Assembly: GCA_003963315.1 (NCBI GenBank)
Contig: RXJP01000035.1
Coordinates: forward strand, 14,802 to 78,801
Length of the DNA: 64,000 bases
Reading direction: 5' to 3'
From: Rhodocyclaceae bacterium
GTDB lineage: Bacteria > Pseudomonadota > Gammaproteobacteria > Burkholderiales > Rhodocyclaceae
The notes under the pieces are model-generated. The model saw only the letters and a list, made by a program, of their open reading frames with translations, searched no databases and was not told the DNA's origin. This document shows, piece by piece, positions 1,834 to 60,744 of the stretch (positions are counted from its first letter, which is position 1; every line of letters starts with the position of its first letter). Both the position numbers and the translations under genes were made by a program.

Positions 1834-3330
1834 ATGTCCCTCGCCGTCCTCCGTAGCCGTGCCTTGACCGGCATGCAGGCGCTGGAAGTCGCCGTTGAGG
1901 TGCATCTCGCCCCTGGGCTGCCCGCCTTCAATCTGGTGGGACTGCCGGATACCGAAGTCAAGGAGTCCCGGGATCGCGTGAGGGCGGCGATCCAAAATTG
2001 CCGCTTTGAATTTCCCGCCCGGAAAATCACGGTCAACCTGGCACCTGCCGACCTGCCCAAGGGCGCAGGACATTTCGACCTGCCCATCGCCTTGGGCATC
2101 CTGATCGCTTCCGGCCAAGTACCCGCCGAGCATCTGAACGACTACGAATTTGCCGGCGAATTGTCCCTGACCGGCGAGCTGCGTCCGATCAGGGGCGCCT
2201 TGGCCATGAGTCTTGCCGCCGGTCGTTTCGGCCGATCTTTGATGTTGCCCCCGGAGAGCGCAGCGGAAGCCGCCTTGGCGCGAGATACCGTCGTGCTACC
2301 TGCAAGCACGCTGCTCTCTGCTTGTGCCCATCTGAGCGGCGCGGACCACTTGGCGGCGGCGAAGACGGAACCATCCACCGTCGCACCGGGCTATCCGGAC
2401 CTCGCCGAGGTACGGGGACAAAGCCAGGCCAAACGCGCCCTGGAGGTGGCGGCCGCGGGCGGCCATTCCCTCCTGATGAGCGGCCCACCGGGCACCGGCA
2501 AATCCATGCTGGCGAGCCGCTTTCCGGGCTTGCTGCCACCGATGGAGGAACAGGAGGCCTTCGAGGCCGCGGCAGTGCAGTCCCTGGCCGGGAGCTTCCG
2601 GCTTGAGAGCTGGGGCCGGCGTCCTTTCCGCAGCCCCCACCATTCCGCCTCCGCTGCGGCGCTGGTAGGCGGCGGCAGTACGCCCCGCCCGGGGGAGATT
2701 TCCCTAGCCCATGGCGGCGTGCTGTTTCTGGACGAGTTGCCGGAATTCGACCGGCGTGTGTTGGAAGCCCTGCGGGAACCCCTGGAAAGCGGCACCATCT
2801 GCGTGTCCCGGGCGGCGCGCCGGGCCGATTTTCCTGCCCGCTTCCAATTGGTCGCGGCCATGAATCCTTGCCCCTGCGGCTATCTGGGTCACCCCAGCGA
2901 CAAATGCCGCTGCACGCCGGACCAGGTAGGGCGCTACCGTAGCCGCCTATCTGGGCCGCTGCTGGACCGGGTAGATTTAATGATAGAAGTCCCCGCCGTC
3001 AGCGAAGCCGAACTGCGCCAGGGCAAGCAGGGCGAATCCTCCGCCTTCGTACAAAGCCGGGTGATCGCGGCGAGGAACGTTCAGCAACAACGTCAACAAA
3101 TGAGTAATGCCCTGCTCGGCCCGGATGGCATCGATGCCCATTGCAGGCCCGACGAAAAGGGAGCGGCCCTGCTCGCCCAGGCCATGGATAGGCTGCAACT
3201 TTCCGCCCGCGCCTATCACCGCATTCTCAAGGTCGCCCGCACCATCGCCGATCTGGCCGCCAGCGAAAAAGTCGGTGCGGCCCATGTCGCCGAAGCCATC
3301 CAATATCGCCGCGGCCTGCACGAGGCCTGA
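1834..3330 (+). CDS. yifB: YifB/ComM family Mg-chelatase-like ATPase
   Basis: 498 aa with a Lon-protease-like N-terminus (VEVHLAPGLPAFNLVGLPDTEVKESRDRV), Walker A GPPGTGKSM and a C-terminal ChlI-like domain. Confidence 0.9.
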   Translation: MSLAVLRSRALTGMQALEVAVEVHLAPGLPAFNLVGLPDTEVKESRDRVRAAIQNCRFEFPARKITVNLAPADLPKGAGHFDLPIALGILIASGQVPAEHLNDYEFAGELSLTGELRPIRGALAMSLAAGRFGRSLMLPPESAAEAALARDTVVLPASTLLSACAHLSGADHLAAAKTEPSTVAPGYPDLAEVRGQSQAKRALEVAAAGGHSLLMSGPPGTGKSMLASRFPGLLPPMEEQEAFEAAAVQSLAGSFRLESWGRRPFRSPHHSASAAALVGGGSTPRPGEISLAHGGVLFLDELPEFDRRVLEALREPLESGTICVSRAARRADFPARFQLVAAMNPCPCGYLGHPSDKCRCTPDQVGRYRSRLSGPLLDRVDLMIEVPAVSEAELRQGKQGESSAFVQSRVIAARNVQQQRQQMSNALLGPDGIDAHCRPDEKGAALLAQAMDRLQLSARAYHRILKVARTIADLAASEKVGAAHVAEAIQYRRGLHEA

Positions 3331-3336
3331 TCACCC

Positions 3337-4539
3337 TTGCCCATCAGCGCCGGTCTCCTGCCCTTTCTGCTGGCCGCCCTTGCGGCCATCGGCCCGCTGT
3401 CGGTAGACACCTACCTACCGGCGTTCCCGGCCATTGCCGAGGCCCTGCACGCCACGCCGCTCCAGGTGCAGCAGTCCATGACGGCCTACCTGATCACCTT
3501 CTGTCCACTCATGCTGTGGCACGGCGCCATCGCCGACGCGGTGGGACGGCGCAGGGTCATCCTCGCCGGCTTGGCGCTCTATGCGGCGGCTTCGCTCTTC
3601 TGTGTCTTCGCCACCCGGATCGAAATGCTCTGGCTCGGCCGTGCCCTGCAGGGGCTGGCCGGCGGCGTAGGCGGCGTGGTGGGCCGCGCCATCATCCGCG
3701 ACCGTTTCCAGGGCGCCGCCGCGGTACGGCAGATGGCCCATGTCTCCATCATTTTCGCCGCCGCCCCGGCGGTCGCCCCGGTCATCGGCGGCTGGCTCTT
3801 GGTGGGGTTCCAATGGCATGCCATTTTCGTTTTCCTCACCCTCTATACCCTGCTGCTACTTTTGGCCTGCGTCCTTTGGCTGCCGGAAACACTCACCATC
3901 GAACATCGCCACAGCCTCCATCCCCGTGCCCTATGGCAAGGCTATCGGGAGGTGCTGGGCAATCCCGCTTTCCTCAAGATCAGCATCGCCACGGCTTTCT
4001 TTATGAACGGGCAGATGCTTTACATCATGTCCTCGCCCATCTTCCTGATGCGGCACTTGGGCCTCTCGCCCCAATCGTTCTATTGGCTGTTCGTGCCGGT
4101 TATCATGGGCATGGTAACGGGCAACGTGCTGTCCTCCCGCCTGGCGGGCAAGCTGCGAGTGGATCGGGTGGTGGCCCTGGGCATTGTCATCGTGCTGGCA
4201 GCGGCGACGGGCAACGTTGTGCTCAATGCCTTCATGGTCGCCCGCCTGCCTTGGGCCGTGGTCCCCATGATGATCTACGCGGTAGGCCTGTTTACCGCCT
4301 TCTCCGGACTGCAACTGATGGCGTTGGACATGTTCCCGGCGCGGCGCGGCATGGCGTCCAGTTGCCAGAGCTTCATCGTCACGCTGGGCATGGGCCTCAC
4401 CGCCGGTGTGGCAGCGCCGCTGTTGTGGGACTCCACCCTGCACTTGGCGGGCGGCATGGCCATCTACTGCTGTCTGGGACTGGCCTTCTATCGCTGGGCC
4501 AGGGCCGCGCTAAAACAGGCTGAACAACATCTCCCCTGA
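3337..4539 (+). CDS. MFS transporter, Bcr/CflA drug-resistance subfamily
   Basis: 400 aa and about 12 TM segments. The N-terminal motif GPLSVDTYLPAFPAIAEAL is typical of Bcr/CflA. The start is a TTG codon, so the exact start is uncertain. Confidence 0.8.
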   Translation: MPISAGLLPFLLAALAAIGPLSVDTYLPAFPAIAEALHATPLQVQQSMTAYLITFCPLMLWHGAIADAVGRRRVILAGLALYAAASLFCVFATRIEMLWLGRALQGLAGGVGGVVGRAIIRDRFQGAAAVRQMAHVSIIFAAAPAVAPVIGGWLLVGFQWHAIFVFLTLYTLLLLLACVLWLPETLTIEHRHSLHPRALWQGYREVLGNPAFLKISIATAFFMNGQMLYIMSSPIFLMRHLGLSPQSFYWLFVPVIMGMVTGNVLSSRLAGKLRVDRVVALGIVIVLAAATGNVVLNAFMVARLPWAVVPMMIYAVGLFTAFSGLQLMALDMFPARRGMASSCQSFIVTLGMGLTAGVAAPLLWDSTLHLAGGMAIYCCLGLAFYRWARAALKQAEQHLP

Positions 4540-5307
4540 CAGCACGATCAACACCCCGGCAAAAATGCGTTTCAACGTCGCCACCGGCAAGCGGTGGGCC
4601 AACGTGGCACCCAACGGGGCCGCGACCACACTGGGCAAGACCAACATAGCCAAAGCGGGCAAGTAGATATACCCCAGGCTATTGCTGGGCAGGGCGTCCG
4701 CTCCGTAACCGCCTACCATGTAACCCACGGTGCCTGCCAAAGCGATAGGCAGGCCGAGGGCGGAGGAAGTGCCGATAGCGTGGTGCATCTTGACGTTGCA
4801 CCAGGTCATGAAGGGCACCGACAGGGATCCGCCGCCGATGGCCACCAAAGAGGACACCCCGCCGATACCGGCGCCCACCCCGAACATCCCCAGGGGACCG
4901 GGCAATACGCGGGCCGGTTTGGGCTTGGCATTGATGATCATCTGAATCGATACATAAGCCATGAACAGCACGAAGAAAATGGCCAGGGCCTGGGTAGACA
5001 CGTGGCTCACCACCTGGGCGCCAAGGAAGGTGCCCAACAGGATGCCCGGCGCCATGGCGCGCACAATGGGCCAGAGCACGGCACCGTGGCCGTGGTGGGC
5101 ACGCAGGCTGGAAATGGAGGTAAACACGATGGTGGCCAGGGAGGTGCCCAAGGCCAGGTGCATCACATGCTCGACGGGAAAGTGTTGCGCGGTGAACAGC
5201 ACGGCCAGCACCGGCACGATGATGCCGCCGCCGCCGACTCCCAACAATCCCGCAAAAAAACCGGCAAGGGCGCCGAGGGCCGCATAGGCCAATAACCAAG
5301 TCGTCAT
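4510..5307 (-). CDS. TauE/SafE family sulfite/anion exporter
   Basis: Polytopic membrane protein (MTTWLLAYAALGALAGFFAGLLGVGGGGIIVP...). The start at 5307 gives an ATGA overlap with the upstream EVE gene stop. Confidence 0.8.
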   Translation of the reverse strand: MTTWLLAYAALGALAGFFAGLLGVGGGGIIVPVLAVLFTAQHFPVEHVMHLALGTSLATIVFTSISSLRAHHGHGAVLWPIVRAMAPGILLGTFLGAQVVSHVSTQALAIFFVLFMAYVSIQMIINAKPKPARVLPGPLGMFGVGAGIGGVSSLVAIGGGSLSVPFMTWCNVKMHHAIGTSSALGLPIALAGTVGYMVGGYGADALPSNSLGYIYLPALAMLVLPSVVAAPLGATLAHRLPVATLKRIFAGVLIVLSGEMLFSLF

Positions 5308-5768
5308 TTGAGCAGCTTCTGAGTGATGAATTTCCATTCCGCCGGATCCACCGGCGTGATGGAGAGGCGATTGCCTTTTTGCAGTATGCGCATGTTCTCA
5401 AGCTCGGGGTGGGCACGCAATTCCGCCAGGCCGATCAGCCGGGTCTTTTCGGTGATGCGCACATCCACATTCATCCAGCGCGGGTTTTCCTGTGTGGATT
5501 TGGGATCGAAATAATGGCTCTCGGGATCGAACTGGGTGCGGTCCGGGTAGGCCTTCGTCGCCACTTCCGCCAAGCCGGCAATGCCCGGCTCGGGGCAGGA
5601 GGAGTGATAGAAGAACACCTTGTCCCCCACCGCCATCTGGTCGCGCATGAAATTACGCGCCTGGTAATTGCGCACCCCCCACCAATCCACGGTCTGGTTA
5701 GGCATGGCCAACACGTCATCGATGCCAACCACGGAGGGTTCGCTTTTCATCAGCCAATAACGGGGCAT
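5304..5768 (-). CDS. EVE (PUA-like) domain protein
   Basis: MPRYWLMKSEPSVVGIDDVL...WWGVRNYQARNFMRDQMAVGDKVFFYHS matches the EVE/Thy28-like family. The start was moved to the ATG at 5768 with a GGAGG RBS. Confidence 0.8.
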   Translation of the reverse strand: MPRYWLMKSEPSVVGIDDVLAMPNQTVDWWGVRNYQARNFMRDQMAVGDKVFFYHSSCPEPGIAGLAEVATKAYPDRTQFDPESHYFDPKSTQENPRWMNVDVRITEKTRLIGLAELRAHPELENMRILQKGNRLSITPVDPAEWKFITQKLLK

Positions 5769-5775
5769 GGTTCCT

Positions 5776-5810
5776 CCAAAAACAAAAAAGCGCTGAAGTC
5801 CATTCAGCGC
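5776..5810 (-). terminator. Rho-independent terminator (downstream of zapA/6S RNA)
   Basis: The minus strand reads GCGCTGAA-TGGAC-TTCAGCGC followed by TTTTTTGTTTTT. Confidence 0.7.
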
Positions 5811-5857
5811 CATATCAAACCCAAACACACAATCGAGCGTAGCGAGCTAACCAGTCA

Positions 5858-5885
5858 CCTCCCCCAAGGGGAGGCCGGGAGGGGT
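5858..5885. repeat. Short copy of the GGGGAGG-hairpin intergenic repeat (family A)
   Basis: CCTCCCCCAAGGGGAGGCCGGGAGGGGT resembles CCCCTGACAAGGGGAGGACGGGAGGGGT at 48899-48926 and units at 13117-13235. Confidence 0.55.
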
Positions 5886-5939
5886 AGTTTGACTGCCCCG
5901 CTAGCGGGGGAAACCAATATCGTCCCTGGAAGAACGATA

Positions 5940-6140
5940 TTGGTTTCCCCCGCCTGTGCCGTTAGGCCGCTATCCTGAACCTGGGTTCAGGGGGGCTGCG
6001 TTCCTGCTGCATCAGGTTCACCCGGAGAAGGGCGATCACAACAGCAGCGTCTAGGGTCGGCAACCATGTCTTGCGACATTGGTTCAAGGAAATTTACAGC
6101 CTTGGCGAACACCGCAGGGGAAAACCGGGGAAACCCAGCC
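5940..6140 (-). ncRNA. ssrS: 6S RNA (SsrS), boundaries approximate
   Basis: Sits immediately downstream of zapA, which is conserved synteny in gamma- and betaproteobacteria. There is no credible ORF. Minus-strand GGTTTTCCCC (about 6126-6117) can pair with GGGGGAAACC (about 5951-5942) as a closing stem. An internal hairpin CCTGAACC-CA-GGTTCAGG mirrors the E. coli 6S CCUUGAACC-AAG-GGUUCAAGG element. No covariance model was run. Confidence 0.55.
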
Positions 6141-6155
6141 GGCACGGCCTTGGAA

Positions 6156-6506
6156 TCAGAACAGGTCTTCCTGTTTCGTCTCCGCCAGGGCCTTGTCCAA
6201 CTTGGCTTCGATGCCAGCGATTCTACGCCGCAACGCCCCAGCGTCAACGTGGCCCGTCTCGTTTTCCACCACCGGCGCAGGGGCGGCCAGGGCATTGGCG
6301 CGCAACAGGTCGTGGGCCAGATTGAGGGCCACCATCACCGCCAGTTTTTCGCCATTGCTGCGGGTCTTGTCCGCCACTTCGGCCATGCGTTCGTCCAACA
6401 GCTTCACCGCAGCATGCAGGGCCTCCCGCTCTTCTGGCGCACAGGACACCCGGTAGTCCTTGCCTTGGATAGTGATATCGAGGGAATTCGAGTTCGCCAC
6501 AGTCAT
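6156..6506 (-). CDS. zapA: Cell division protein ZapA
   Basis: 116 aa, ...LDITIQGKDYRVSCAPEEREALHAAVKLLDERMAEV...KLAVMVALNLAHDLL matches the ZapA family. Confidence 0.9.
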   Translation of the reverse strand: MTVANSNSLDITIQGKDYRVSCAPEEREALHAAVKLLDERMAEVADKTRSNGEKLAVMVALNLAHDLLRANALAAPAPVVENETGHVDAGALRRRIAGIEAKLDKALAETKQEDLF

Positions 6507-6706
6507 GCCTCCGGCAACTTGTCCCGCAGCACTTCAAGGCGGGCACGCGCGGCATCCATCTTGTCCGCGAGGGATTGCTTCTCGGACTCCAGTACGGCCA
6601 TCCGGCTGCGCAGCGCCAAATTCTCCTCATGCAGCGAGTCGCACAAGGCCAGCACCCGGTCCACCTTCTGATCCAGGGGTTCAAAGAAATCGGGGTCAAG
6701 GTTCAT
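6503..6706 (-). CDS. Small coiled-coil protein (TIGR02449-like, usually upstream of zapA)
   Basis: MNLDPDFFEPLDQKVDRVLALCDSLHEENLALRSRMAVLESEKQSLADKMDAARARLEVL. I chose the internal ATG at 6706. It has a 4-nt overlap with the zapA start. Confidence 0.7.
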   Translation of the reverse strand: MNLDPDFFEPLDQKVDRVLALCDSLHEENLALRSRMAVLESEKQSLADKMDAARARLEVLRDKLPEA

Positions 6707-6829
6707 AACGAAAGTTTGTTGGAAATTCCCTTTATGGTCAAGGCATGAGACCTCGATTTTCAGGTAATCACTGAAGTCAGACCAGGAAAACAGGTGGGGG
6801 CCGGGCAGGTTCAAGCCCCCTTTTGCTAC

Positions 6830-7025
6830 AATCCGCCCCCTGTTCGAGGTGCCCACGCCGATTTTCTTCGGTCAGGGTGAAACGGGAAGCAGGTGAAAGA
6901 CCTGCGCTGCCCCCGCAACGGTAAGGAAGTGCGGAACCATCAAGACGCCACTGGGTGCCATCCAAAATGCGCCCGGGAAGGCGATGGTTCAAGACTTCCA
7001 AGCCCGGAGACCGGCCACGGACATT
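6830..7025 (+). promoter_or_regulatory. Cobalamin (AdoCbl) riboswitch
   Basis: Conserved core GGTGAAACGGGAAGCAGGTGAAAGACCTGCGCTGCCCCCGCAACGGTAAGG and B12 box AGCCCGGAGACCGGCC (7001-7016). A TACAAT -10 element at 6827-6832 lies just upstream, and btuB follows directly. Confidence 0.85.
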
Positions 7026-7145
7026 CGTATGAATCGCTGCGGGAGGGCAGTGGTCGGCGCATTCGTCTGCTCCGAAACTCCTTTTGCTGCGATTCCCTGT
7101 CCAATCCACTGGCAGCGGGGACGCTTGCCGGGAAAAGGAGTATCC

Positions 7146-9095
7146 ATGTTCCATCCATCCATCAAGCCCACTGCGGCAGCTATCGCCGTACTTACCGCCT
7201 TCCAAGCATGCGCTGCTGACGCGGAGCCCTCCCTGACGAATGTCGTCGTGACCGCAAATCGCCAACCCACCCGAGTCGACCGGGTGCTTGCCGACGTCAC
7301 CACGCTGAATCGGGAGGATATCCAATCCTCTGGCTACGGCTCACTTGAATTGCTCTTGGCGGCCCAGCCTGGCGTCGAGTATTCGGCCACCGGCGGCGCC
7401 GGACAACCCGCGTCCATTTTCCTCCGCGGCGCAAACGGGAATCACACATTGGTGTTGCTCGACGGGGCTCGCATCAATTCCGCCACTTTGGGTACCGCCG
7501 CGATTAGCGCCATTCCCCTTGCCGCCATCGACAGGATCGAAATCCTGCGCGGTCCCGCCTCCAGCCTGTACGGCGCCGACGCCATTGGTGGTGTGATCCA
7601 GATATTCACTCGCAGCGGCGGTGATACGCCCTACTTCAGCGCCTCCTACGGCATGGGCAACCGGAATGCGAGCGCCGCCGAAGTCGCCGGCGGCGGAAGA
7701 TTCGGCGATTGGTCTTTGTCCATGGACGCCAGCCAATCCCGTACCGATTCAGTCAATGCCATCAACCATCCTGATGCCCGCTGGGCCACCCTGTTCTTCA
7801 CCACTGATCCCTACAATCCCGACCGGGATGGTTTCCGCAACGACAGCGTAAGCGCCCGGGTCGGCTACCGCATCAATCCCGACCATCAAGTCGGCATCAA
7901 CGTATCCCGCTTCTGGGGATTGGTCCGCAAGGACGCCACCCAGTGCGACCTGGCCACCGGCTTGGTCTGTACCGCCAACTTCGACTCCCGCACCGCCCAG
8001 GCGGTGCAGACCACGTCGGCCTACTGGCGTGGTCAGTTGTCCCAGGACTGGACCAGCACCTTGCGACTGGATCGCAGCGAGGATGACCAACGGGACTATC
8101 GCTTCGATCCGGCCACCCTGCGGGAACCGCGCAGCGCCTTTGCCACCACCCAGCACCAACTGTCCTGGCAGAACGACCTGCGCCTTGGCCCCGGAAAGTT
8201 ACTGCTGGCCGCGGAAGAGCTTCAGCAGAAAATCGCGGCCAACTCCACCTATGTGCAGAAAGAACGGACCATCCGTTCCTTGCTGGCGGGCTACGACGCT
8301 TGGTATGGGCCCCATGGCGTCCAGATAAATGTCCGCCAGGATGACAACACGCAGTTCGGCACGAAAACCACCGGCGGCGTGGCATACGCCTATCAGCTCT
8401 CCCCGGCATGGCGTGCACAAGGCGGCGTCAAGACGGCGTTCAAGGCCCCCTCCTTCAATGACCTCTACTTCCCCCGGGACCCCCTCTTCGGCGGCGGCAA
8501 CCCCAACCTGAAGCCGGAAAAATCCACCTCCACCGAAGCTGGCCTGACCTACACGCAGGGAGACCACCGCCTCGGCGTCACGGTATACCGCAACAAGGTG
8601 AGCAATCTGATCGAATGGCGCCCCGACCTCGCCGTCGGTCCCTTCTTCTGGACGCCGCAAAACATCAGCCAAGCACTATTGCGTGGCGCCACCCTGACCT
8701 ATGACGGCACCCTGGCGGACTGGTGTTTCCGCGCTTCCCTAGATCTGCAAAATCCTATCGACATGGAGCGCAACGTCACCCTCAACAACCGGGCCAGGGC
8801 CACGGCCAAACTCCAGGCTGACCGCCAGATCGGCGCTTGGAATATTGGCGCCGGCTTTCTCGCCGTCGGCGCCCGCCACGAGGACGACAGTTTCAGTGCC
8901 GCCACCCCTGCCGACCGGCGCGACCGCCTGGGGGGCTATACCCTGGCGAATCTATCCGTCCAGTACGCGGTAGACAAGAATTGGAGCGTTTTCGGCCGCG
9001 CCACCAATCTCTTCGACAAACGTTACGAGCCCCGTTTCAACTACAACAGCGAAGGCGCGGGATACTTCGTCGGTGTCCGTTATCAAATGAAATAA
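7146..9095 (+). CDS. btuB: TonB-dependent vitamin B12 receptor BtuB
   Basis: Signal peptide plus TonB box (SLTNVVVTANRQPTRV), plug domain and a C-terminal beta-barrel ending ...YFVGVRYQMK. Start at the ATG 7146 with an AGGAG RBS. The ORF-track 5' extension lies inside the riboswitch. Confidence 0.9.
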   Translation: MFHPSIKPTAAAIAVLTAFQACAADAEPSLTNVVVTANRQPTRVDRVLADVTTLNREDIQSSGYGSLELLLAAQPGVEYSATGGAGQPASIFLRGANGNHTLVLLDGARINSATLGTAAISAIPLAAIDRIEILRGPASSLYGADAIGGVIQIFTRSGGDTPYFSASYGMGNRNASAAEVAGGGRFGDWSLSMDASQSRTDSVNAINHPDARWATLFFTTDPYNPDRDGFRNDSVSARVGYRINPDHQVGINVSRFWGLVRKDATQCDLATGLVCTANFDSRTAQAVQTTSAYWRGQLSQDWTSTLRLDRSEDDQRDYRFDPATLREPRSAFATTQHQLSWQNDLRLGPGKLLLAAEELQQKIAANSTYVQKERTIRSLLAGYDAWYGPHGVQINVRQDDNTQFGTKTTGGVAYAYQLSPAWRAQGGVKTAFKAPSFNDLYFPRDPLFGGGNPNLKPEKSTSTEAGLTYTQGDHRLGVTVYRNKVSNLIEWRPDLAVGPFFWTPQNISQALLRGATLTYDGTLADWCFRASLDLQNPIDMERNVTLNNRARATAKLQADRQIGAWNIGAGFLAVGARHEDDSFSAATPADRRDRLGGYTLANLSVQYAVDKNWSVFGRATNLFDKRYEPRFNYNSEGAGYFVGVRYQMK

Positions 9096-33028: not shown

Positions 33029-33104
33029 GGGTCGGTAGCTCAGTCGGTAGAGCAGCGGACTTTTAATCCGTTGGTCGCGAGTTCGAATCTCGCCCGACCC
33101 ACCA
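33029..33104 (+). tRNA. tRNA-Lys (anticodon UUU)
   Basis: GGGTCGGTAGCTCAGTCGGTAGAGCAGCGGACTTTTAATCCGTTGGTCGCGAGTTCGAATCTCGCCCGACCCACCA folds as a canonical cloverleaf. A TATAAT box lies at 33005-33010. Confidence 0.93.
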
Positions 33105-33151
33105 AAAAGCCAGGAAAAAACGGCGCGGCTTCCGTTATAATCCGCGCCCTC

Positions 33152-33227
33152 GGGCTGTTAGCTCAGTTGGTAGAGCAGCGGACTCTTAATCCGTAGGTCG
33201 AGTGTTCGAATCACTCACAGCCCACCA
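33152..33227 (+). tRNA. tRNA-Lys (anticodon CUU)
   Basis: GGGCTGTTAGCTCAGTTGGTAGAGCAGCGGACTCTTAATCCGTAGGTCGAGTGTTCGAATCACTCACAGCCCACCA. A TATAAT box lies at 33135-33140. Confidence 0.93.
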
Positions 33228-58010: not shown

Positions 58011-58827
58011 CCGCCTTCTTCCTGCGGGTGTCGTATAACGGCATTACCTGAGCTTCCCAAGCGTGCGACTCGCGTCGCGTAGGTTAGCTGTAACCGCTGC
58101 ACACGTTCGAAGTGCAGGAACACAGCCTATCGAGAGAAGTGCCGCTTGCCGGCACGATGCGGCTAAGGCCGTACGAGTAATTGTCCTGCTGCCCGCAAGG
58201 GATGACAGGACCAGGGGTTCAGCCCCTTGTAGTCTAGGAGCGGTGCGTCACTGGTAACGGTGGGGTGCCAAGCGCTCTGACAATGTAGCCACCTTACGGG
58301 GTACGCCATATCCCGCGAGGGACTTGGTGTGATTTCGGGAGTTGCACCCGGATGAGGCGCTAGGCTGGGTTGGTTGGTCAACAAAAGTGAACCGCTATTA
58401 AACGTCGTTAAGCTTGATGAGCCAAAGGCAACTTGCAATATCGGGCTCAGCCAAAACGGCACGTGATCGGTTGTTCGCCTGCTTGGTGCGAACACGCTGA
58501 CATAGGCATCACCGGCGAAAAGGCGGGACCTTCCCAATTCTGTTACTTGTGCGGAACGAGGTAAGCCCAATGCGGCGTCTGGCCAGTTTGGTAGACAAAG
58601 GTAACCGCAAGGTTATCTGATGCTGTAGTGGGTAGAGGAGGATGGAAAAAGCGAATGCCTCGCTGTAATAGCGGGGATAGGGGATGGAACGATTGCCCCG
58701 ACGCGAAAGCGTGCAGACTTCCATCTGGTGACTCTTCGTAAGAAGGGTCTGTTCAATCGCAAACCCAACGGGGATGATGCTAAGATTCCCGGTCGGGGAT
58801 AATTGCGTCTTCCTCCGAAGGTTCAGA

Positions 58828-58901
58828 GCGGGTGTAGTTCAATGGTAGAACTCCTGGTTCCCAACCAGATAACGAGGGTTCGATTCCCTTCACCCGCTCC
58901 A
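58828..58901 (+). tRNA. Intact tRNA-Gly (anticodon CCC) located inside intron domain IV
   Basis: GCGGGTGTAGTTCAATGGTAGAACTCCTGGTTCCCAACCAGATAACGAGGGTTCGATTCCCTTCACCCGCTCCA is a 74-nt canonical cloverleaf with encoded CCA. It lies 17 nt upstream of the IEP ATG. Confidence 0.88.
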
Positions 58902-58918
58902 TACAACCGGAGGTTGAT

Positions 58919-60586
58919 ATGGACGCAATGCAATCTGATTGCGATGTCGCCTCTACGGCTTGGCAGTCTTGGCACGAAGTTTCATGGATCAAGGCTTATC
59001 AAGTTGTCGCGAGGCTACAGGCACGTATTGCGAAGGCAGCAAAAGTAGGGGAATGGCGGAGGGTTCGCACCCTGCAGAGACTCCTGACCAAATCGAGTAG
59101 TGCGAAAGTGCTGGCAGTTCGGCGGGTCACGGAGAATCAAGGCCGGAAGACTCCAGGCGTGGATAAACAAACCTGGGGCACGCCGGAAGAGAAGTGGAAA
59201 GCGGTAGTTGACCTTGGTAACAAGAGATACAAGCCGTTACCATTACGACGCATCTACATTCCGAAAGCAAATGGTGACCAACGCCCTCTGGGCATACCCA
59301 CCATGCGTGATCGGGCGATGCAAGCGCTGCATTTGCTGGCGCTGGATCCTGTTGCCGAAACAATCGCAGATCCTCATTCCTACGGTTTCAGACGTGAGCG
59401 CTCGACGGCAGATGCTATCGAACAAGTGCGCAACGTGCTGGGCCGGAAAGCTTCCCCGAAATGGGTGCTGGAAGGAGATATCAAAGGTTGTTTTGACAAC
59501 ATTAGTCATGACTGGCTGGTTGCTAATGTCTGCATAGACAAGGGCGTCCTTCGGAAATGGCTGAAAGCAGGCTTTATCGAGATGGGAAGGCTTTTCCCAA
59601 CGCAAGCAGGGACGCCACAGGGAGGCATCATTTCCCCGGTCTTGGCGAATCTGGCGCTGGATGGGCTGCAACATGAACTGACCAAACTGTTCCGTACAGT
59701 GCGGGAGGCGCGTGCGGCAAAGGTCAATCTGGTGCGGTATGCGGATGACTTCATCATCACTGGGAGCTCGCAAGAGTTTTTGGCGGAGAAGGTCAAACCT
59801 CTGGTGGAGAAATTCCTTGCCGCCCGGGGCCTCAAACTCTCGGAAAAGAAAACCAAAATCACGCATGTGACGGAGGGTTTCGACTTCCTGGGGTGGAATG
59901 TCAGATATTTCAATCGAATGCTGGTCACACAGCCGTCGAAGAAGAATATCAAGGCGTTTCTGGAGAAAATCCGCAACCTGCTGCGCGACAGAAAGGCTGC
60001 TGGACAGATCGAGGTGATCGAAAAGCTGACCCCGGTACTCAGGGGATGGGCCAACTATCATCGAAGTCAGATGGCGTCCCAGACGTTTGCAAGGTGCGAT
60101 CATCAAATCTGGCGAGCATTATGGCGCTGGGCGTGTCGCCGTCACCCAAACAAAGGGAAGCGGTGGATCAAACAGCGTTACTTCAAATGCCTCAAGGGGC
60201 GTGACTGGCGATTTGCGGATCAGGACAAGTTGCTGCCCATCTTGGCGGGATGCCGGAAACGGCCCCACACCAAGATCATGGCCGAAGCGAATCCGTACGA
60301 TCCGACGTACGACGAGTATTTTTCCAGACGGCTTGCACAGCGAATGGAAAAGACGCTCGAAGGACGGCTCAAGCTTCGCTGGTTGTGGTGGTGGCAGGAA
60401 GGTGAATGCCCCATCTGCAATCAAAAGATCACGAGAGAAACCGGGTGGCACCTCCACCACATAATCAAGCGATCTCAGCGAGGTTCGGACAAGCTGACCA
60501 ACTTGGTCTTGCTGCATCCGAATTGCCATATGCAGTACCACGTTTTTGAGAAATACGGCCCTGCCGGCACCTCAATGTTCAAATAG
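58919..60586 (+). CDS. Group II intron-encoded protein: reverse transcriptase / maturase (X) / HNH endonuclease
   Basis: 555 aa. RT motifs are IPKANGDQRPLGIPTMRDR, SYGFRRERS, DIKGCFDNISH, GTPQGGIISPVLANLAL, YADDFIITG and GFDFLGW. The X domain has RGWANYHR. The En domain has CPICNQ...HLHHII...LLHPNCHMQYH. A GGAGG RBS lies at 58909-58913. Confidence 0.93.
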   Translation: MDAMQSDCDVASTAWQSWHEVSWIKAYQVVARLQARIAKAAKVGEWRRVRTLQRLLTKSSSAKVLAVRRVTENQGRKTPGVDKQTWGTPEEKWKAVVDLGNKRYKPLPLRRIYIPKANGDQRPLGIPTMRDRAMQALHLLALDPVAETIADPHSYGFRRERSTADAIEQVRNVLGRKASPKWVLEGDIKGCFDNISHDWLVANVCIDKGVLRKWLKAGFIEMGRLFPTQAGTPQGGIISPVLANLALDGLQHELTKLFRTVREARAAKVNLVRYADDFIITGSSQEFLAEKVKPLVEKFLAARGLKLSEKKTKITHVTEGFDFLGWNVRYFNRMLVTQPSKKNIKAFLEKIRNLLRDRKAAGQIEVIEKLTPVLRGWANYHRSQMASQTFARCDHQIWRALWRWACRRHPNKGKRWIKQRYFKCLKGRDWRFADQDKLLPILAGCRKRPHTKIMAEANPYDPTYDEYFSRRLAQRMEKTLEGRLKLRWLWWWQEGECPICNQKITRETGWHLHHIIKRSQRGSDKLTNLVLLHPNCHMQYHVFEKYGPAGTSMFK

Positions 60587-60605
60587 GGGTGCTTATGGGT
60601 TGCTT

Positions 60606-60639
60606 GAGCCGTATGCGGGGAAACTTGCACGTACGGTTC
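60606..60639 (+). other. Group II intron domain V (catalytic hairpin)
   Basis: GAGCCGTATGCGGGGAAACTTGCACGTACGGTTC is a 34-nt hairpin with an AGC triad, a 2-nt bulge and a GAAA tetraloop, typical of chloroplast-like/IIB bacterial introns. Confidence 0.9.
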
Positions 60640-60715
60640 TTAGGGGAGGGGGTGGCCGTGAGGCTACCCCCTTACCCGCCTCATGAAGAGGGTTCGACTC
60701 CCTTCACCCGCTCCA

Positions 60716-60744
60716 AAAAACAAAGGGCGCCCCACGGCGCCCTT
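60716..60744 (-). terminator. Rho-independent terminator of the dioxygenase gene (abuts the tRNA-Gly 3' end, possibly bidirectional)
   Basis: The minus strand reads AAGGGCGCC-GTGG-GGCGCCCTT followed by TGTTTTTT. Confidence 0.7.

Follow-up and report, generated by a model that had tools for sequence, protein, structure and literature searches.

A group II intron in a bacterial tRNA-Gly(CCC) gene that pairs with its target and probably spares the tRNA-Gly(CCC) it carries

A tRNA-Gly(CCC) gene at 58024-60715 in a Rhodocyclaceae contig is, as read from its sequence, split by a group II intron. The window analysed is the whole 64,000-nucleotide (nt) stretch corresponding to positions 14,802-78,801 of RXJP01000035.1, and all positions are counted within it. 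The insertion point falls between tRNA nucleotides 40 and 41, on the 3' side of the anticodon stem, and domain IV of the intron contains a complete second tRNA-Gly(CCC), referred to here as the cargo tRNA. The exon-binding sites (EBS) of the intron form 13 of 13 pairs with the intron-binding sites (IBS) of the interrupted host tRNA (EBS2 6, EBS1 6, EBS3 1) and 8 of 13 with the equivalent nucleotides of its own cargo. The intron likely recognises the tRNA that it interrupts and would spare the copy that it carries. The features needed for this comparison are as follows.

58024..58062, plus strand: exon 1, nucleotides 1-40 of the interrupted tRNA-Gly(CCC) (sequence)
Within exon 1: IBS2a, T58049 (position -14); IBS2, 58050-58055, GAGCTT; spacer, C58056; IBS1, 58057-58062, CCAAGC
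58063..60680, plus strand: group II intron of 2618 nt, IIB1/CL1-type, GTGCGAC...CCCGCC (Rfam and relatives)
58409..58415, plus strand: EBS2a, T58409, and EBS2, AAGCTT, 58410-58415 (covariation, structural context and homology to the E. coli intron L212)
58473..58493, plus strand: EBS1 hairpin, with EBS1 GCTTGG at 58481-58486 (stem and intron-exon covariation)
58520, plus strand: EBS3, an A that pairs with +1 T60681 (best complementary column of domain I)
58828..58901, plus strand: cargo, the tRNA-Gly(CCC) of domain IV, its CCA encoded (ARAGORN; Rfam tRNA, 68.5 bits)
58919..60586, plus strand: intron-encoded protein of 555 amino acids, reverse transcriptase, maturase and HNH endonuclease (Pfam, TIGR04416)
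60604..60680, plus strand: domains V and VI (RF00029 alignment, sequence)
60681..60715, plus strand: exon 2, tRNA nucleotides 41-73 and CCA, with T60681 as IBS3 (sequence; ARAGORN on the spliced product)

Pairing of the intron with host and cargo tRNAs

The host arm reads ..CTGAGCTTCCCAAGC up to the splice junction and TCATG.. beyond it, and the cargo arm reads ..TCCTGGTTCCCAACC followed by AGATA.. at the equivalent place. The IBS-equivalent of the cargo is CTGGTT-C-CCAACC followed by A, and the contacts lost are those at -13, -12, -10, -2 and +1. EBS2 reads tRNA nucleotides 28-33, EBS1 reads nucleotides 35-40 and EBS3 reads nucleotide 41, which together comprise both strands of the anticodon stem and the loop. 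The spacer C58056 is the anticodon nucleotide C34. Pairs 28:42, 29:41 and 31:39 are changed in the cargo and pair 30:40 is kept. Because the intron reads both stem strands, these three compensated base-pair changes result in the loss of five contacts.

This geometry suggests how a carried tRNA could be hidden from its own intron. The loop nucleotides are fixed in a tRNA-Gly(CCC), and only the stem pairs 28:42, 29:41, 30:40 and 31:39 are free to vary. A compensated change at 31:39 would remove contacts -10 and -2, one at 29:41 would remove -12 and +1, and one at 28:42 would remove the single contact at -13. Compensated change at 30:40 would cost two contacts with the tRNA fold kept. The window cargo would be a poor reverse-splicing substrate for its own intron, with the interrupted gene and the E. 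coli tRNA as full matches. The lost pairs are predicted, by analogy with characterised introns, to block homing, and selection rather than drift would keep cargo and target different. Such protection is relative: it concerns the binding sites of the intron itself and no others.

The E. coli-type arm reads ..AGAGCTTCCCAAGC followed by TCTAT.., and E. coli tRNA-Gly(CCC) is a perfect match to the binding sites of the window intron. The EBS2a nucleotide T58409 is complementary to the A at -14 of this arm, which would make the E. coli tRNA a 14/14 match.

An earlier sequence-only reading of the window had anticipated much of this arrangement. It had given the end of exon 1 as GAGCTT-C-CCAAGC, recognised GCTTGG (58481-58486) in the 9-nt loop of a hairpin of six base pairs as the complement of CCAAGC, proposed that AAGCTT (58410-58415) can pair with GAGCTT, and read the cargo arm as CTGGTT-C-CCAACC, then A instead of T. 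All of these readings were correct; the intron starts with GTGCGAC at 58063 and exon 2 with T60681. The E. coli glyU arm that it named was also accurate, since E. coli tRNA-Gly(CCC) reads ..CGAGAGCTTCCCAAGCTCTAT.. and includes GAGCTTCCCAAGCTC. Its statement that the cargo anticodon stem still forms is true of four of the five pairs; the other, 27:43, is C.A. Its suggestion that the cargo is immune to its own intron agrees with the 8/13 and 13/13 pairing scores and has to be qualified, since a sibling variant of the intron is found inserted in such a cargo.

Comparative evidence for the binding sites

When the 765-nt 5' part of the window intron was shuffled, 24% of the shuffles contained an exact IBS1 complement; the sequence-only reading had put the chance of a given 6-mer in ~750 nt at about 0.17. 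A G-U-tolerant IBS2 complement was found in 96% of shuffles, and four such sites are present in the window intron. The window 6-mer matches are therefore not above chance, and the assignment is significant only through comparative data.

Covariation was used to examine the structure that presents these sites. Copies of the segment homologous to 58386-58532 from 32 diverse introns were aligned and a five-helix structure was scored. In these five helices of subdomain ID, 99.8% of the cells are paired and 19/26 pairs are changed on both sides. None of 500 shuffles reaches the observed values, and no slid register comes close. The EBS1 hairpin has the stem GTTCGC (58473-58478)/GCGAAC (58488-58493) and the 9-nt loop CTGCTTGGT. 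All 6/6 stem pairs show compensatory change in the 32 sequences, and the loop, YTGCTTGGT, is invariant. The EBS2a/EBS2 site lies in a multibranch loop just past the 5' strand of the helix CGTCG/CGGCG. EBS3 A58520 is found on the 3' strand of the internal loop that separates the helices CCGCT/GGCGG and CGTCG/CGGCG, a strand with a run of A residues.

Pairing between intron and exon was then scored in 50 relatives. EBS1 position 2 and exon position -2 are C:G in 48 and G:C in 2, with zero mismatches, and EBS2 position 3 and exon position -10 are G:C in 48 and C:G in 2. EBS2 position 5 forms a Watson-Crick pair with -12 in 44/50 (37 T:A, 6 A:T and 1 C:G). Pairing of EBS2 position 6 with -13 is seen in just 17/50, so the EBS2 helix effectively extends from -8 to -12. 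The EBS2a column (T58409) is Watson-Crick with -14 in 38/50 (31 C:G, 6 G:C and 1 A:T), compared to a shuffle mean of 24.8. An EBS2a-IBS2a Watson-Crick pair with exon position -14 is a feature of IIB1 and IIB2 introns (PMC8643678). The A58520 column is Watson-Crick with +1 in 45 of 48 introns (40 A:T and 5 T:A). An initial ranking of EBS3 candidates by minority classes was rejected because it gave constant T columns; ranking by overall complementarity gave A58520. The location of EBS3 at A58520, pairing with T60681, gives relevance to the changed +1 nucleotide that the earlier reading had pointed out in the cargo.

A natural switch in specificity is present in two loci. The inner intron of L027 and the outer intron of L028 (L numbers denote the loci compared) follow CCAACC and carry EBS1 GGTTGG. 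EBS2 is AACCAG in the L027 inner intron and AACCAA in the L028 outer intron, facing TTGGTT/CTGGTT. In this switch, the changes at two distinct sites of the intron are coordinated.

As a class-level check, the intron of the E. coli plasmid CP091399.1 (L212, 555-2905) was aligned with the window intron through domains I-III. The L212 protein is ~54% identical to the window intron protein. EBS1 of L212, GCTTCC, pairs with its own exon end GGAAGC at the site homologous to 58481-58486. EBS2 (CCCTG) pairs with the L212 exon CAGGG, EBS2a (A) pairs with T at -14, and EBS3 (G) pairs with C at +1. The EBS1 and EBS2 placement of the earlier reading, which had named a structure-based comparison within the intron class as its own check, is supported by the covariation in ID, the EBS-IBS covariation and the homology to L212, and the alignment with the E. 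coli IIB1 intron confirms the EBS positions. These sequence comparisons strongly support the positions of EBS1, EBS2 and EBS3 as assigned.

A further match was noted in the window. The segment GGTTGGTTGG at 58368-58377 contains GGTTGG, the complement of the cargo IBS1 CCAACC, twice. It lies outside the EBS1 loop in a conserved stretch, and the two matches are probably coincidental.

Distribution of the intron and host-cargo pairing in relatives

A scan with the intron protein, using one genome per species, gave 80 loci. A tRNA-Gly(CCC) is found ~17 nt before the protein gene in 54/80. Cargo-less introns with 54-59% protein identity account for 20/80, and the 6 remaining loci are cut contigs or truncated copies. 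Nearly all cargo-bearing introns are inserted at ..TTCCCAAGC, with GTGCGA.. following, in tRNA-Gly(CCC). The hosts are Rhodocyclales, Oxalobacteraceae, Gallionellaceae, Casimicrobiaceae, Sphaerotilaceae-type Burkholderiales and several gammaproteobacterial lineages. The complete genomes with the intron include CP054864.1 and NZ_OZ257250.1. The earlier reading had suggested a wide host range for homing into this tRNA and a survey of genomes for it; the same tRNA-Gly(CCC) site is indeed occupied across several proteobacterial lineages. The window exons are nearly identical to those of L008, from a Rhodocyclaceae genome. L001 (JBLNBM010000027.1) is labelled Bacteroidota; its exons and intron are Rhodocyclales-type and the label is probably a binning error.

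The EBS1 loop TTTTACATCT is present in at least 10 of the cargo-less loci (L060-L062, L064, L066-L068, L070, L076 and L079), and several have groEL-like sequence upstream. These correspond to the Avi.groEL type of the specialized IIB1 clade (PMC12584367). Among the cargo-less introns of the set, those of the groEL type come closest. The neighbour-joining tree of the proteins was midpoint-rooted without an outgroup, and the tRNA-Gly introns may branch either within the specialized clade or next to it.

A metagenome scan with TTCCCAAHCGTGCGA for sites other than CCAAGC gave 120 stretches, none with an intron, which were chance matches or ordinary tRNA (L140). Viral contigs contained no close relative, with protein identity of 54% at most, and gave no sign that the lineage is phage-borne. 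A nucleotide search of plasmids yielded nothing beyond 100 nt of conserved ribozyme sequence in introns of enterobacterial plasmids, which was then put to use in the class-level alignment.

Pairing scores were calculated for the host and cargo of 51 introns. The host outscores the intron's own cargo in 45/51, ties with it in 4 and scores below it in 2, with medians of 12 for host and 10 for cargo. The +1 nucleotide of the cargo is mismatched to EBS3 in 41/51 introns.

Nested, swapped and truncated copies

L027 (2326-6186) is a twintron in which domain I cores and domain V/VI units are each present twice, along with a single intact tRNA. The outer part consists of exon 1, a GCTTGG-type 5' part and then the 5' half of a cargo tRNA ending in CCAACC. 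The inner intron (3132-4377) begins at this point and has EBS1 GGTTGG, EBS2 AACCAG and EBS3 T; most of its protein gene is missing and its own cargo is intact. After the inner intron come the 3' half of the outer cargo, the outer protein gene, domains V/VI and exon 2. By inspection, the L027 inner intron matches the window cargo at 14/14 positions including EBS2a, and the window cargo is therefore open to sibling variants.

The nesting is reversed in L028 (2323-5757). Here the leading 5' part is GGTTGG-type, and a GCTTGG-type intron interrupts its CCAAGC-type cargo. L028 has two domain I cores and one V/VI unit, a single 3' end as expected from recombination between the two protein genes. L031 (3151-7572) has one 5' part and core and two 3' parts and V/VI units with a tRNA 3' half between them, and is the complementary recombination product.

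Host and cargo sequences have also been exchanged. The Gallionellaceae loci L020-L025 have the host arm GGCAGC... and the cargo TCTTGC..., except for L022, which has the host arm AGAAGC. The host and cargo arms of L026 are swapped relative to L020-L025, and its EBS2 and EBS3 are changed to match.

Three other rearranged loci were observed. L016 contains an unrelated group II intron at 5705-8097, inside domain V of the tRNA-Gly intron (..GAGCCGTATGCGGGGAAAC before the insertion and TGTGCGCC.. after it), and the protein of the inserted intron (6197-8014) has RVT_1, Intron_maturas2 and an AI2M-like HNH. L014 (~3940-5798) and L058 (~3915-6360) are 5'-truncated, start within the cargo T-arm and keep exon 2. 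This truncation is the outcome that would be expected of reverse transcription halting at the tRNA, or of processed intron RNA.

Condition of the two tRNAs

Exon 1 and exon 2 of the window joined together give a 74-nt tRNA-Gly(ccc) in ARAGORN; exon 2 begins TCATG and ends CACCCGCTCCA. Among the relatives, 49/50 spliced host tRNAs are called tRNA-Gly(ccc) by ARAGORN and have intact acceptor stems, and the host exons are therefore either maintained or recently invaded. About 17 Burkholderiales loci (L015, L016 and L035-L051) have a C28:U42 mismatch that comes from exon 2 TTCATACG. Exon 1 of L038 is short of one anticodon C and ARAGORN no longer calls Gly, and exon 2 of L047 has a damaged 3' end. 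The interrupted gene is possibly decaying in some loci.

The cargo tRNAs always have the anticodon CCC, an encoded CCA, G1:C72, C2:G71, G3:C70 and U73, and their stems vary by compensation among relatives. The elements G1:C72, C2:G71, G3:C70, U73, C35 and C36 are those that we take to be the identity elements of E. coli glycyl-tRNA synthetase. The window cargo, GCGGGTG...CACCCGC-T-CCA, has a cloverleaf fold, the anticodon CCC and all six elements, with C27.A43 as its one mismatch. Judged by its sequence, it is a bona fide tRNA-Gly(CCC). The cargo would be co-transcribed with the intron and would supply a tRNA whether or not the intron splices. It is predicted to be expressed from the same transcript, charged and working.

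Intron class and locus anatomy

The intron starts with GTGCG at 58063, which fits the 5' GUGYG of group II introns. Domains V and VI are recognised by RF00029 (60604-60680, 66.4 bits), with the bulged A60674 as the branch-point candidate 7 nt from the 3' splice site, and the domain I core by RF02012 (58211-58359, 103.3 bits). Both intron ends are kept in ~50 relatives. The intron-encoded protein has the Pfam domains RVT_N, RVT_1, GIIM and HNH and matches TIGR04416 with 376.6 bits. Its domain and closest-structure matches indicate a group II protein of the CL1 lineage, with reverse transcriptase, maturase X and endonuclease, encoded in domain IV. The closest solved chain is 6ME0_C with 607.9 bits, compared to 147 bits for LtrA. 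6ME0_C is the Th.e.I3/T.el4h reverse transcriptase; this intron is classed as IIB1 and its enzyme as CL1 (PMC8643678).

The binding sites are those of a IIB intron. EBS1 is located in a terminal loop and EBS2 in subdomain ID, forming 6/6 and 6/6 pairs in the window with one G-U, and the 3' exon is bound by EBS3-type pairing of A58520 with T60681 from the ID internal loop. A IIA-type delta pairing was ruled out, as the nucleotide 5' of EBS1 is a T opposite the +1 T. By every feature checked, the sequence places the intron in subgroup IIB1/CL1. The window element is apparently an intact mobile group II intron.

Members of a specialized IIB1 clade have an insertion of ~300-700 nt, 'subdomain Ia', at the base of domain I (PMC12584367). 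The window intron has a shorter insertion at the place expected for subdomain Ia.

58070..58190, plus strand: variable 5'-subterminal insertion of ~100-120 nt, limits approximate (three-way alignment)

The stretch is hypervariable in length and sequence among relatives (~100-330 nt), and BLAST similarity drops out there. RF02012 begins 149 nt after the 5' splice site in the window and 52 nt after it in L212, and the three-way alignment shows no such insertion in this E. coli plasmid IIB1 intron. The insertion resembles subdomain Ia of the groEL-type introns and is shorter. Insertion in or beside a start or stop codon of a housekeeping protein gene, which characterises the specialized clade, is not seen here, as the intron lies within a tRNA gene.

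The cargo tRNA ends 17 nt before the start codon of the protein gene. Two long-range covarying stems were observed, 58794-58800 with 58922-58928 (TTGCGTC/GACGCAA) and 58718-58723 with 58919-58923 (TTCCAT/ATGGA). They enclose the cargo tRNA as well as the ribosome-binding site and start codon of the protein gene, and folding of the intron may hide this start codon. A promoter scan found no consensus promoter upstream of exon 1, and a hairpin lies beyond the tRNA.

60723..60744, no strand assigned: G+C-rich hairpin just 3' of the tRNA end (terminator-like score on the minus strand)

On the plus strand this hairpin may also terminate the tRNA/intron transcript. Elsewhere in the window are a 6S RNA (5943-6123, minus strand), a cobalamin riboswitch (6830-7033, plus strand) and neighbouring tRNA-Lys genes with anticodons TTT and CTT (33029-33227, plus strand), which are ordinary and unrelated to the intron.

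Alternative explanations

Several observations weigh against the conclusion that the intron recognises its target and spares its cargo. IBS1 of the cargo is CCAAGC, identical to the target, in 42/51 introns, and in L008, L009, L029 and L052 the cargo differs from the target solely at -13. Base-pair discrimination is strong in the window, weak in some relatives and weak or absent in these four loci. The consequence of five mismatches for homing is projected from the behaviour of other introns, of the IIB1 and IIA types. The L027 inner and L028 outer introns are near-identical, and their EBS1 switch is one evolutionary event. In the window, EBS2a T58409 faces T58049 at -14, a mismatch, and the same is true of most Rhodocyclales copies. 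The EBS2a pairing in EcI5 is needed for mobility (retrohoming) and not for splicing (PMC8643678), and the mismatch together with this requirement suggests that the window copy may be poor at homing even into its own site. The neighbour-joining protein tree mostly follows host taxonomy. Much of the history may be vertical, and the cargo-target differences may be drift of two paralogous tRNAs.

This last possibility can be stated as a full alternative, in which the sites are correctly assigned, the difference between cargo and target is the drift of two paralogous tRNA-Gly genes, the intron is inherited mostly vertically and covariation is kept for splicing. It is considered unlikely. The agreement of the protein tree with taxonomy, the spliced host tRNAs that stay intact, the four loci with cargo one position off target and the EBS2a mismatch in most Rhodocyclales copies, the window included, are all consistent with it. 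It is harder to reconcile with the covariation of EBS2a and -14 in 38/50 relatives, given that in EcI5 this pair serves mobility and not splicing (PMC8643678). The swapped host/cargo pairs and the twintrons with matched binding sites show ongoing invasion, and no cargo fully matches its own intron over the 14 scorable positions; L018, L039, L054 and L056 come close via tolerated G-U pairs.

The tRNA in domain IV could instead be mainly an RNA-processing or structural module, cut by RNase P and 3' processing near the ribosome-binding site so as to free the reverse transcriptase mRNA or limit mobility. The position of the cargo 17 nt before the ATG, beside a GGAGG ribosome-binding site and in a covarying bracket stem, fits such a role, as do the truncated L014 and L058 copies that start in the cargo T-arm. 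A module of this kind does not account for an anticodon that is always CCC, the same as in the interrupted gene, for acceptor pairs G1:C72, C2:G71 and G3:C70 and U73 that are kept, for a CCA that is always encoded, or for compensatory change in all stems. It is judged somewhat less likely even than drift as the main explanation, and the processing and replacement-tRNA roles are compatible rather than exclusive. The explanation that the 6-mer complementarities are coincidental and the true EBSs lie elsewhere in domain I has a negligible probability. The window by itself would permit it (P ~0.24 for EBS1 and ~0.96 for G-U-tolerant EBS2), but it is refuted by the covariation of every variable pair, the L027/L028 specificity switch, the position of EBS1 in the terminal loop of a covariation-supported hairpin and the pairing, at homologous positions, of an E. 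coli IIB1 intron with exons that differ from these.

Discussion

Phages and integrative elements whose insertion sites are tRNA genes carry with them a duplicate of the tRNA segment that they displace; they use DNA recombinases and carry the 3' part only. Like these elements, the tRNA-Gly intron uses a conserved tRNA as its landing site and neutralises the damage with carried sequence. It differs from them in being an RNA-guided retroelement that carries a complete tRNA of different sequence. Group I introns of cyanobacteria likewise interrupt a tRNA gene, in the anticodon loop. To our knowledge neither these nor the tRNA introns of organelles carry a replacement tRNA, they are largely immobile or of another class, and we know of no mutually invading specificity variants among them. 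Organellar group II introns in tRNA genes, such as chloroplast trnK with matK (PMC4424553), share with the tRNA-Gly intron the interruption of an essential tRNA gene that must be spliced. Related introns nested by homing are found in the twintrons of T. elongatus, Trichodesmium and Methanosarcina (PMC2882425, PMC4649490, PMC4424553). In the twintrons described here, by contrast, nesting takes place in the cargo tRNA, and matched EBS changes set the invader apart from the resident; the window itself has no twintron.

The nearest known counterparts are EcI5 of E. coli and Th.e.I3/T.el4h of Thermosynechococcus, both mobile IIB1 introns with CL1 enzymes (PMC8643678; PDB 6ME0/6MEC). They share with the window intron an EBS1 in a terminal loop, EBS2/EBS2a in a multibranch loop, EBS3 in the ID internal loop and a protein with reverse transcriptase, maturase and HNH, and the EcI5-like E. 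coli plasmid intron aligns with it position by position. In contrast to these introns, the window-type target is a tRNA anticodon stem, domain IV has a full tRNA gene, there is a ~100-nt extra 5'-subterminal insertion, and the EBS2 helix is extended to -8 with -13 often unpaired. The Avi.groEL-type specialized IIB1 introns (PMC12584367) resemble the tRNA-Gly intron in occupying an essential, highly conserved proteobacterial gene. The relatives of this type (L060-L070, L076 and L079) have groEL upstream, the EBS1 loop TTTTACATCT and 54-59% protein identity. Unlike the tRNA-Gly intron, the specialized clade sits in or next to protein genes' start or stop codons and has no tRNA, and its insertion of 300-700 nt is longer than the about 100-330 nt of the tRNA-Gly intron.

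The literature searched contained no account of a group II intron with a tRNA inside it, nor of an intron in a bacterial tRNA-Gly, and an earlier mention in Michel et al. 2007 is possible. Relative to that literature, the bacterial tRNA target, the full tRNA cargo in domain IV, and a re-coded cargo with siblings that invade each other's cargo are new. A wider interpretation is offered tentatively, as one that could well hold but falls somewhat short of probable. This intron lineage would use tRNA-Gly(CCC) both as landing site and as passenger, with a re-coded replacement that its own RNA does not see. Sibling introns would target each other's passengers, giving rise to nested introns and swapped pairs in an arms race of self and non-self recognition by base pairing. 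The borne tRNA would possibly be the main or only dependable source of tRNA-Gly(CCC) in many Betaproteobacteria.

The general view of bacterial group II introns is that they keep out of essential genes and carry only their own reverse transcriptase. The tRNA-Gly intron family occupies an essential, universally conserved tRNA, and its spare copy of this tRNA suggests how a retroelement could settle in a housekeeping gene without relying on splicing being efficient. The element could shield its cargo by compensated changes in the stem, each of which removes two contacts. tRNA finders report the cargo only and miss the split gene, and the tRNA-Gly(CCC) locus is consequently misdescribed in genome annotation. 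The family is a natural record of the target rules of IIB1 introns, the class of the EcI5-type gene-targeting vectors, including EBS2a, EBS3 and one full natural re-targeting.

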